Of a DNA stretch of 64,000 nt, positions 61,109 to 61,205 are shown in pieces. Under the pieces are notes generated by a model. The model searched no databases. It saw only the letters and a list, made by a program, of their open reading frames with translations, and was not told the DNA's origin. Positions within the stretch are counted from its first letter, which is position 1, and each line of letters begins with the position of its first letter. The DNA is from Escherichia phage vB_EcoM_YN3. The stretch lies in the sequence record PV763136.1. One strand, written 5' to 3'. The position numbers and the translations under genes are program-made.

Positions 61109-61205
61109 TGCTAGGCGGTGGAATCGAACCACCTATGTATTCAACGACTACCTCGTCTATTTTCAGGATTAAAAATCCTCGCCCTTGCCAAAGGGCTTAC
61201 CTAGC
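61109..61205 (-). ncRNA. atypical 97-nt tRNA-like element (non-canonical anticodon region; possible unusual tRNA or tRNA pseudogene)
   Basis: Acceptor GCUAGGU/GCCUAGC, D-arm GCCC-UUUGGCAA-GGGC and T-arm GGUGG-UUCGAUU-CCACC are clear; between them lie two short hairpins, no encoded CCA, A at position 8. Confidence 0.4.

Follow-up and report, generated by a model that had tools for sequence, protein, structure and literature searches.

A stretch of 64,000 nt from Escherichia phage vB_EcoM_YN3 (sequence record PV763136.1), referred to here in its entirety as the window, carries an unusual tRNA-like element on the minus strand of positions 61109–61205. Its 97-nt RNA has a 7-bp acceptor stem, a D-arm and a T-arm, and two internal hairpins. 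The comparative evidence shows it to be a genuine RNA gene under selection, one of a separate and hitherto undescribed family of tRNA-like RNAs in phages, about 97–107 nt long, which is carried in the tRNA operons of the Vequintavirinae and a few other lytic phages. The favoured reading, given a probability of about 45%, is that the element is a tRNA mimic, in which the shape of a tRNA would be used without decoding.

Structure of the element

Read 5′ to 3′, the element runs from G1 at 61205 to the discriminator base A97 at 61109, and this whole tRNA-shaped unit was picked out by ARAGORN, Rfam, the minimum free energy (MFE) fold and a family covariance model, R1 (96.2 bits). The 5′ strand of the acceptor stem (GCUAGGU, 61199–61205) pairs with the 3′ strand (GCCUAGC, 61110–61116) and is followed by the connector A8 A9 (61197–61198). 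As the preliminary description had stated, position 8 is A in place of the usual U. The D-arm (GCCC, UUUGGCAA, GGGC; 61181–61196) has an 8-nt loop with U14, G18 and G19, and could alternatively form a 6-bp stem with a UGGC tetraloop. The A8/U14 combination is a swap of the usual U8/A14 and may represent a swapped tertiary pair throughout the family. After a single G come hairpin 1, at the anticodon-arm position (AGGAU UUUUA AUCCU, 61165–61179), linker 1 (GAAAAUA, 61158–61164), which is predicted to be single-stranded, hairpin 2, at the variable-arm position (GACGA GGUAG UCGUU, 61143–61157), linker 2 (GAAUACAUA, 61134–61142), the final A of which is position 48, and the T-arm (GGUGG UUCGAUU CCACC, 61117–61133), leading into the 3′ acceptor strand and the discriminator A. 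Hairpin 1 can also be drawn with a 4-bp stem and a 7-nt loop, UUUUUAA, that presents the triplet UUU, and this is the way in which Rfam reads it.

MFE folding gives precisely these five stems, at −37 kcal/mol (z = −3.8); of 200 shuffled sequences, not one was as stable. Both internal hairpins quoted in the preliminary description are present in this fold. A protein-coding gene is not indicated: the only open reading frames are of 28–59 aa, start with TTG or GTG and lie on the opposite strand, family members are 97, 104, 105, 106 or 107 nt long, and substitutions are paired across stems.

Beyond the discriminator A the DNA specifies CC-U and then UUUU before tRNA-Thr begins (3′ trailer CCUUUUU, 61102–61108), so that two of the three CCA bases are encoded. 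The earlier statement that CCA is not encoded therefore holds for the terminal A but not for the CC, and most relatives encode U-CCA. All other tRNAs of the window encode CCA. A consensus scan also picked up the T-arm and 3′ acceptor strand, followed by GCACCUUUUU, as terminator-like (61112–61135, minus strand); the U-run is specific to the rV5 lineage.

Homologues and distribution

A blastn search with the element returned 150 phage records, and a second search with a Mydovirus copy returned 85. Homologues occur in Vequintavirus and Avunavirus (Av-05), in Seunavirus (PVP-SE1, SSE121, GAP31, 4MG and NINP13076), in Mydovirus (phages of Klebsiella, Raoultella and Proteus) and in Henunavirus (Erwinia phages Hena1 and pEp_SNUABM_01). 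Outside the Vequintavirinae, a copy is present in the N4-like Salmonella phage UTK0002 (Schitoviridae), and exact-motif scans added IMG/VR and metagenome contigs, some of them (unrelated contigs of 58–152 kb) from clearly different phages: L169, a 58-kb contig, L164, L173 and L176, in which the element is 39–40% G+C, and L148, L154 and L177. Altogether there are 30 distinct homologues, from five Vequintavirinae genera, the N4-like phage and several uncultured phage contigs, with identities down to about 70% by BLAST, and all of them lie inside tRNA operons. The covariance model R1, built from five copies, gave 65–121 bits for the 30 distinct members and at most 27 bits for every ordinary tRNA in the same loci. 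A scan of 185,579 bacterial and archaeal genomes for the motif AATACATAGGNGGTTNGATTCC came back empty, and no cellular or prophage source was found among them. Taken together, the distribution is best read as one of horizontal transfer followed by retention.

Two search patterns were set aside. The first one used for collecting homologues, CTGAAAAN{12,42}AATACATAGG, was too loose, with only three of 120 IMG/VR loci being real, and TTTGGNAANNNCGRGGNNATCAA gave, beyond the known members, only chance matches in coding DNA.

Two phages have lost the element. In JES2013 (L193, 1940–2030) and V18 (L194, 1945–2045) its place is taken by chimeras, the 5′ part of which comes from tRNA-Tyr and the 3′ part from the element; one chimera is fused within the T-arm, the other within hairpin 2. 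Along with tRNA-Ser, the half genes on either side of it have been deleted, and the acceptor strands are mismatched. The chimeras arose by recombination within the similar T-arms or variable regions. The loss shows that the element, like tRNA-Tyr and tRNA-Ser, is accessory.

Covariation and sequence constraint

Pairing was analysed across the 30 distinct sequences for the acceptor, D, hairpin-1 and T stems and one tertiary pair, 22 pairs in all. Paired combinations filled 98.6% of cells, compared with 81% in column shuffles and 27–46% when partners were slid by 1–3 columns, and 14 of the 22 core pairs showed compensatory changes on both sides. The acceptor stem was fully paired over its seven pairs (five compensatory), the D-stem was 98% paired (three of four compensatory), the stem of hairpin 1 was 95% paired (three of five), and the T-stem 100%. 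The acceptor stem, D-arm and T-arm claimed at the outset are all there. The tertiary pair is G19:C56 in 22 sequences and U19:A56 in the other eight, with zero exceptions: the D-loop UUUGGCAA goes with the T-loop UUCGAUU, and the D-loop UUUGUCAA with UUAGAUU. Since G19:C56 is the canonical elbow pair of tRNA (PMC7609411), its covariation indicates that the RNA folds into an L-shape. The pairs U7.G66 and G50.U64 can form on the minus strand only, which fixes the strand.

Hairpin 2 also covaries, from GACGA/UCGUU in rV5 to GACGG/CCGUU in Av-05 (GACGG GCUAG CCGUU), where an A-U pair has become G-C by compensatory change, and in Seunaviruses it takes the forms GCUCUC/GAGAGU, CCCUCC/GGGAGG and UCCCCC/GGGGGA. 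Its length and loop are lineage-specific, and it is longer in other genera; the loop type GAACUAACAGUAC is common to Mydovirus, Henunavirus, UTK0002, L148 and L169.

The nearly invariant positions are A8 (position 9 being A or G across the family), the D-loop UUUG(G/U)(C/U)AA, G26, the GAAAA of linker 1, the AUACAUA that ends linker 2, the T-loop, and the pairs G1:C72 and C2:G71. The two single-stranded linkers, GAAAA.. and AAUACAUA, are therefore among the most constant parts: linker 1 starts with GAAAA in 28 of 30 sequences (UAAAA in L140 and L169), and the linker 2 sequence is in all BLAST homologues, for which the motif was not required. The loop of hairpin 1 varies, at 5–7 nt, from UUUUA in rV5 to UUAUA in Av-05 and AAUCAAG in L169. 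Hena1, pEp, UTK0002, L148, L154 and L164 have AUCAA, closed by C.A or U-A, which amounts to a 7-nt loop CAUCAAA with A33, and Seuna- and Mydoviruses have loops closed by a C-G pair (CAUCCA, CUUCCA, CCUCCA, CAGCCA and CCUCAA). Only the 3′ base of the loop, A, is constant, and the equivalent of U33 is A, C or U. The triplets that would serve as anticodons in otherwise conserved orthologues are UUU, UAU, UCA, UCC and GCC, which would read as Lys, Ile, opal and Gly codons. Even between the sister types Av-05 and rV5 the central base of this 'anticodon' differs, and Av-05 has no CCA. The copy in GE_vB_MG has an apparent 5-nt loop and a missing CCA, both at C-runs in an UNVERIFIED record, and these oddities may be sequencing errors.

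Two further pairings were considered and not adopted. Pairing between the linkers, or of linker 1 with ACAU, is possible in Hena1 and L148 (AUGU/ACAU) and in one Mydovirus (UAUG/CAUA), and is not found in rV5 or Seunavirus; kissing complementarity between the two hairpin loops is inconsistent across lineages.

The loop in the place of the anticodon is thus the least constrained part of the molecule, and the top half of the tRNA, the elbow and the linkers are the most constrained, a pattern which favours a mimic over a decoder. Going by this pattern, we take the lower half of the element not to be a decoder.

Existing annotation

ARAGORN reported 'tRNA-??? (atcc)' at 61107–61205, with a four-base anticodon, AUCC. 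The fold behind this call (stem AUUUU/AAAAU with an 8-nt loop) was rejected, as its pairing across the family, 43.9%, equals that of shuffles. The Rfam tRNA model (RF00005) gave 31.0 bits to the element, against a gathering score of 29, with position 27 deleted, the loop aligned as UUUUUAA (triplet UUU) and 26 nt treated as an insertion. Rfam and some GenBank tRNA-Lys records do, then, read a standard anticodon, UUU, but only weakly, by opening a U-A pair to leave a 4-bp stem and a 26-nt insertion, and the reading fails in homologues. ARAGORN did not call the element in any scanned lineage other than that of rV5, Rfam had no match at E ≤ 1 for the copies in GAP31, L169 and L164, and the best Rfam match of the Hena1 copy was to tRNA-Sec, at 39 bits against a gathering score of 47. 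Since these relatives are missed, existing models do not cover the family.

GenBank records of near-identical phages leave the element unannotated (rV5, FV3) or label it tRNA-Lys (BASEL phages), tRNA-OTHER, tRNA-???(atcc) or tRNA-TERM, and in those of relatives a 'hypothetical protein' or tRNA-sup(tca) lies over it. The element goes unmentioned in the rV5 genome paper, where six tRNAs are listed (PMC3606486), and no description of it was found in the searchable literature on Vequintavirinae, rV5 tRNAs, Hena1 and PVP-SE1.

Function of the element

The tRNA features that have been kept are the 7-bp acceptor stem with its discriminator, the T-arm, the D-arm, the elbow between G18/G19 and the T-loop and, in most lineages, CCA. 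Mimicry is favoured because this shape, with its elbow, ends and linkers, is maintained while the loop is free to change, is often not of 7 nt and lacks U33, and also because the anticodon changes between sister genera, the element appears to have been transferred between phage families, and it is accessory. Of the options raised in the preliminary description, a non-standard tRNA and a tRNA-derived regulatory RNA are both compatible with the data, which favour the mimic over the decoder. Its distribution and dispensability suggest a gene of the kind typical of accessory or counter-defence functions.

From what is general in tRNA biology, the element would be transcribed together with the neighbouring tRNAs in a polycistronic precursor, cut out by RNase P and 3′ trimming exonucleases, and supplied with a new or completed CCA by the CCA-adding enzyme. 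The product would present a second, lineage-specific hairpin tethered by two nearly invariant single-stranded linkers, and would interact with a protein for which the shape of a tRNA is the recognition signal; specificity would come from the linkers and the D-loop, and the anticodon-like loop would be tuned to each host. That it works by engaging a protein through tRNA shape can be proposed with moderate to low certainty. By analogy and from the genomic context, the most plausible setting would be conflict over host tRNAs, in which the element would act as a decoy or inhibitor of a defence enzyme or toxin directed at tRNA. As precedents, phage tRNAs allow infection to succeed in the face of PrrC and Retron-Eco7 (PMC11555353), PARIS and Schlafen nucleases attack host tRNA-Lys(UUU) (PMC13056530), and the rV5-like phage PhiTE neutralises the host toxin ToxN by an RNA mimic, pseudo-ToxI (PMC3475682). 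A more specific version is that of a host-tuned decoy, the loop of which would imitate whichever tRNA is attacked by the local defence, tRNA-Lys(UUU) for E. coli phages and others for phages of Salmonella, Klebsiella and Erwinia, while the linkers would lock the enzyme in a non-productive complex. In this detail the idea is speculative and rather unlikely, although, if true, it would be the first case of anti-phage immunity being inhibited by an RNA that mimics tRNA, and the inhibitor would be mobile between phage families.

Genes of possible relevance lie about 4 kb past the operon and the right end of the window, where phage BP9 (L195, 12879–14884) encodes a calcineurin-like phosphoesterase, a P-loop kinase of the AAA_33 family and a T4-type RNA ligase 1 (PF09511, 55 bits). 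The kinase domain of T4 polynucleotide kinase belongs to the AAA_33 family. By analogy with T4 Pnkp and Rnl1 the three are probably a tRNA healing-and-sealing set, and such a repair set suggests that these phages meet anticodon nucleases. The trio also adjoins a gene for a Sir2-family protein.

Several points weigh against mimicry or against the evidence for it. The alignments used for the pair counts were fitted to the model, which favours its structure; the same pattern was, all the same, seen in the control with slid partners and in the first four homologues, read by eye before any model. The apparent invariance of the AAUACAUAGG motif is partly circular, because two of the collection scans required it; it is present in all BLAST-derived homologues, and a scan without the requirement found only mild variants, CAUACAUA and AAUACGAAAUA, in the most distant members. 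In Seuna- and Mydoviruses, U73, G1:C72, C2:G71 and the triplet NCC resemble the identity elements of E. coli tRNA-Gly, and this could hint at charging or could be chance. The rV5 version can be drawn with the 7-nt loop UUUUUAA (U33, UUU, A37) and has the discriminator A73, and its UUU loop and A73 are identity elements for lysyl-tRNA synthetase (LysRS). As rV5 has no other tRNA-Lys (PMC3606486), decoding is possible in that lineage.

These last points can be developed into a non-canonical but working tRNA-Lys(UUU), in which U32-A38 would open to expose the 7-nt loop, LysRS would charge the RNA through U34-U35-U36 and A73, and AAA and AAG would be decoded; with its odd stem and huge variable region it would be a poor substrate for PrrC, RloC, PARIS AriB and Schlafen, and phage translation would be sustained. 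Such a tRNA deserves serious consideration, even if we regard it as doubtful. Rfam aligns U33, UUU and A37 at a score above its gathering threshold, several GenBank records annotate tRNA-Lys (AAA), and UUU is combined with A73 only in the rV5 lineage, all others having U73. Relatives with other loops carry canonical tRNA-Lys genes, RNA-repair genes are nearby, a phage tRNA-Lys rescues infection from PrrC (PMC11555353), and defence systems repeatedly target the tRNA-Lys(UUU) of the host (PMC13056530). The tRNA would, however, have to work with a 4-bp anticodon stem that has either a G.G mismatch or a missing position 26, with A8/U14, with a 31-nt variable region and with long unpaired tethers, and without an encoded terminal A of CCA, and folding thermodynamics favour the closed 5-nt loop. 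What decides the matter for the family as a whole is that the sister lineage Av-05 has UAU, U73 and no CCA with all else conserved, and that in other genera the loop either is of 6 nt with a closing C-G pair or has A33, so that the conserved function cannot be Lys decoding. A recoding tRNA has also been considered, in which the widespread form (CAUCAAA, with UCA and a long extra arm) would be an opal suppressor or selenocysteine-like, the 6-nt CAUCCA forms (8 nt if opened) would serve frameshift or quadruplet decoding, and the rV5 form would be derived. The Hena1 copy is annotated 'tRNA-sup(tca)' (an ARAGORN-based label) and matches tRNA-Sec best, the D-stem can be extended to 6 bp with a 4-nt loop, the 3′ base of the loop is always A, like position 37, and U-CCA is encoded. 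Yet the tRNA-Sec score is below gathering, the family is 7/5 and not 8/5, its discriminator is U or A and not G, and it has A33 where U33 is near-universal in tRNAs. The extra D-stem pairs (U14-A21 and U15-A20) never vary and so give no covariation test, and the triplet becomes UCC, GCC, UUU or UAU in relatives, the window copy itself having no UCA. Recoding is hardly probable on these grounds.

Features of the operon could suggest instead a cis-acting role, with the element as tRNA-like 'punctuation' that would direct RNase P and 3′ processing of its neighbours and have no role in trans; in rV5-like phages its T-arm and U-run might act as an attenuator. It usually starts 2 nt past the CCA of the upstream tRNA, and the terminator scan of the window caught the T-arm and 3′ acceptor strand with the following CCUUUUU. 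Processing, on the other hand, needs neither invariant linkers, nor covarying hairpins 1 and 2, nor an encoded CCA, and is already provided for by ordinary tRNAs; moreover, the U-run is confined to the rV5 lineage, and in the window the element lies 98 nt from the upstream tRNA. A purely cis-acting element is accordingly judged improbable. The least credible reading, with very little probability left to it, is a decaying tRNA pseudogene or a functionless recombination chimera of two tRNAs. The aberrant anticodon arm and the inconsistent calls of tRNA finders would fit it, and true chimeras of a tRNA with the element do exist in JES2013 and V18. Against it stand the 98.6% pairing, the 14 compensatory pairs and the covarying tertiary pair in 30 distinct homologues across genera, the nearly invariant unpaired linkers, the signs of horizontal transfer and retention, and identities down to about 70%, which mean that the homologues are not recent copies of one sequence. 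The decayed tRNA that had been offered as an option at first was rejected, because the element is under strong purifying and compensatory selection in five or more phage genera and has also reached other lineages of phage.

The family is of wider interest because copies are known from over 200 sequenced phages, among them the type phage rV5, candidates for therapy and phages of the BASEL collection, and because it has been labelled in six contradictory ways or not at all and has no separate Rfam model. The tRNA clusters of phages are weapons in the fight over host tRNAs, yet they are annotated by tools that expect canonical tRNAs. The conservation pattern seen here points to a function that works through tRNA shape without ordinary decoding. 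Should the element turn out instead to be charged and to decode, the range of structures known to be tolerated in bacterial translation would extend to A8/U14, an anticodon stem of 4 bp and a variable region of 31 nt, and a dedicated covariance model would clean up annotation under either reading.

The tRNA operon and its neighbourhood

Over the region 60840–61860 the sequence matches Escherichia phage BP9 at every position (100% identity), while rV5 and upwards of 100 other Vequintavirus genomes share about 98% identity with it. The region includes a tRNA operon (60862–61801, minus strand), as seen with ARAGORN and Rfam and in the GenBank annotation of identical or near-identical phages. In order of transcription the genes, all on the minus strand, specify tRNA-Arg(UCU) (61727–61801), tRNA-Tyr(GUA) (61512–61596), tRNA-Ser(UGA) (61304–61394), the element, tRNA-Thr(UGU) (61026–61101), tRNA-Met/Ile2(CAU) (60950–61024) and tRNA-Pro(UGG) (60862–60938). 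The tRNA-Tyr was missed by ARAGORN and found with the Rfam tRNA model at 39 bits, the alignment having three extra bases before the D-stem. The CAU tRNA is tRNA-Met in most records and tRNA-Ile (ATA, the lysidine tRNA-Ile2) in BASEL phages. Upstream of tRNA-Arg there is a sigma-70-like promoter on the minus strand (61860–61888), a consensus match TTGACA-17-TAATAT, and the same site is annotated P(tRNA) in rV5; it probably drives the operon. The tRNA set of the window (Arg UCU, Ile2/Met CAU, Thr UGU, Ser UGA and Pro UGG) mirrors part of the T4 set.

Two unannotated segments lie between these genes. The 98-nt spacer between tRNA-Ser and the element (61206–61303, minus strand) contains a hairpin, CCGGAAGCAGAACCGG, and is unannotated in relatives. 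Between tRNA-Arg and tRNA-Tyr there is a segment of about 127 nt (61597–61726, minus strand), which is also present in BP9 and JES2013 (L193, 1811–1940) and absent from rV5, where trnY directly follows trnR.

The surroundings of the element differ among lineages. In Seuna-, Mydo- and Henunavirus and in most uncultured contigs it starts 2–3 nt past the CCA of the preceding tRNA, and ends with U-CCA. The 3′ ends of rV5 types are A-CCU (A-CAU in one), and those of Av-05 types are U-ACA. Seuna- and Mydoviruses have a conserved, unannotated stretch of about 190 nt after the element (L006, 2540–2729; L004, 2606–2720), which is of different sequence in L007 (2537–2718) and L005. One type of this stretch begins with GUGCAUUAGCUCAGA, like the 5′ half of a tRNA, and may be another non-canonical RNA. 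The big clusters of PVP-SE1, 4MG and GAP31 include aberrant calls with 4- or 2-base 'anticodons' and a tRNA-OTHER pseudogene (L133, 5994–6079; L134, 192–261; L006, 3760–3829), and irregular tRNAs seem to be common in the Vequintavirinae. About 18 GenBank records in the series MG0656xx, named as Campylobacter phages, are about 98% identical to E. coli rV5-like phages in this region, and are probably mislabelled or contaminant assemblies.

Comparison with known RNAs

Among known RNAs, the element shares most with class II tRNAs (RF00005), having a 7-bp acceptor stem with a discriminator, a 5-bp T-stem with UUCGAUU, a 4-bp D-stem with G18 G19, the G19:C56 elbow, an extra hairpin between the anticodon and T arms, a site in a tRNA operon and, in most lineages, CCA. 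The elbow is that of a canonical tRNA, with UUCGAUU or UUAGAUU facing GG or GU in the D-loop (G18-U55, G19:C56). Unlike canonical tRNAs, the family has invariant A8 and U14 in place of U8/A14, and its loop is of 5–6 nt, reaching 7 nt only with A33 or with an opened Watson-Crick pair, and has no conserved anticodon. It also departs from class II tRNAs in its variable region of 31–41 nt with conserved unpaired tethers of 7 nt and 9 nt, and in that most members have no Rfam tRNA match at all.

A long extra arm, the possible 6-bp D-stem with a 4-nt loop and, in the widespread form but not that of rV5, UCA are shared with tRNA-Sec (RF01852), and some allo-tRNA-like sequences form five-stem junctions and are unchargeable (PMC7609411). 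The family differs from both in being 7/5, and not 8/5, 8/4 or 9/3, in its discriminator U or A, in A33 and in being confined to phages. Where tRNA-Sec is recognised by an 8/5 13-bp domain, G73, UCA and at least 47 bits, the window copy has an A discriminator and UUU, and the best score in the family is 39 bits. The ends of the element form an acceptor stem and not the long Ro-binding stem of YrlA/Y RNA (RF02553), in which the tRNA-like domain lies inside; the sole YrlA match, at 25 bits against 69, was on the neighbouring tRNAs (60885–60997) and not on the element. ARAGORN found no tmRNA, and at 97 nt the element is too short to include an mRNA-like domain.

The T4 species 1 and 2 RNAs (rnaC and rnaD) are likewise small, stable RNAs of unsolved function in a phage tRNA cluster, and in rnaC a T-arm and a terminal stem like those of a tRNA are accompanied by additional internal hairpins (PMC9697503). 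They differ from the element in being longer (119–139 nt) and of other internal architecture. They share its genomic setting only, with no detectable homology: run with filters off, R1 scored rnaC at 6.2 bits (E = 1.4) and had no match to rnaD. The pseudo-ToxI of PhiTE is a non-coding RNA of a related phage that acts by mimicry against an abortive-infection toxin (PMC3475682), although it is a tandem-repeat pseudoknot RNA, not tRNA-like, and has no sequence relationship to the element. Defence-evading phage tRNAs, such as the tRNA-Tyr of T5 and SP15 against Retron-Eco7 and tRNA-Lys against PrrC and PARIS, resemble the element in being accessory and in lying in phage tRNA clusters; they act in conflict over host tRNAs, and the rV5 copy is similar to them in its tRNA-Lys-like UUU loop and A73. 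Those tRNAs are otherwise canonical decoders with small changes in the anticodon loop (PMC11555353), whereas in the element the lower half has been rebuilt and no anticodon is conserved.

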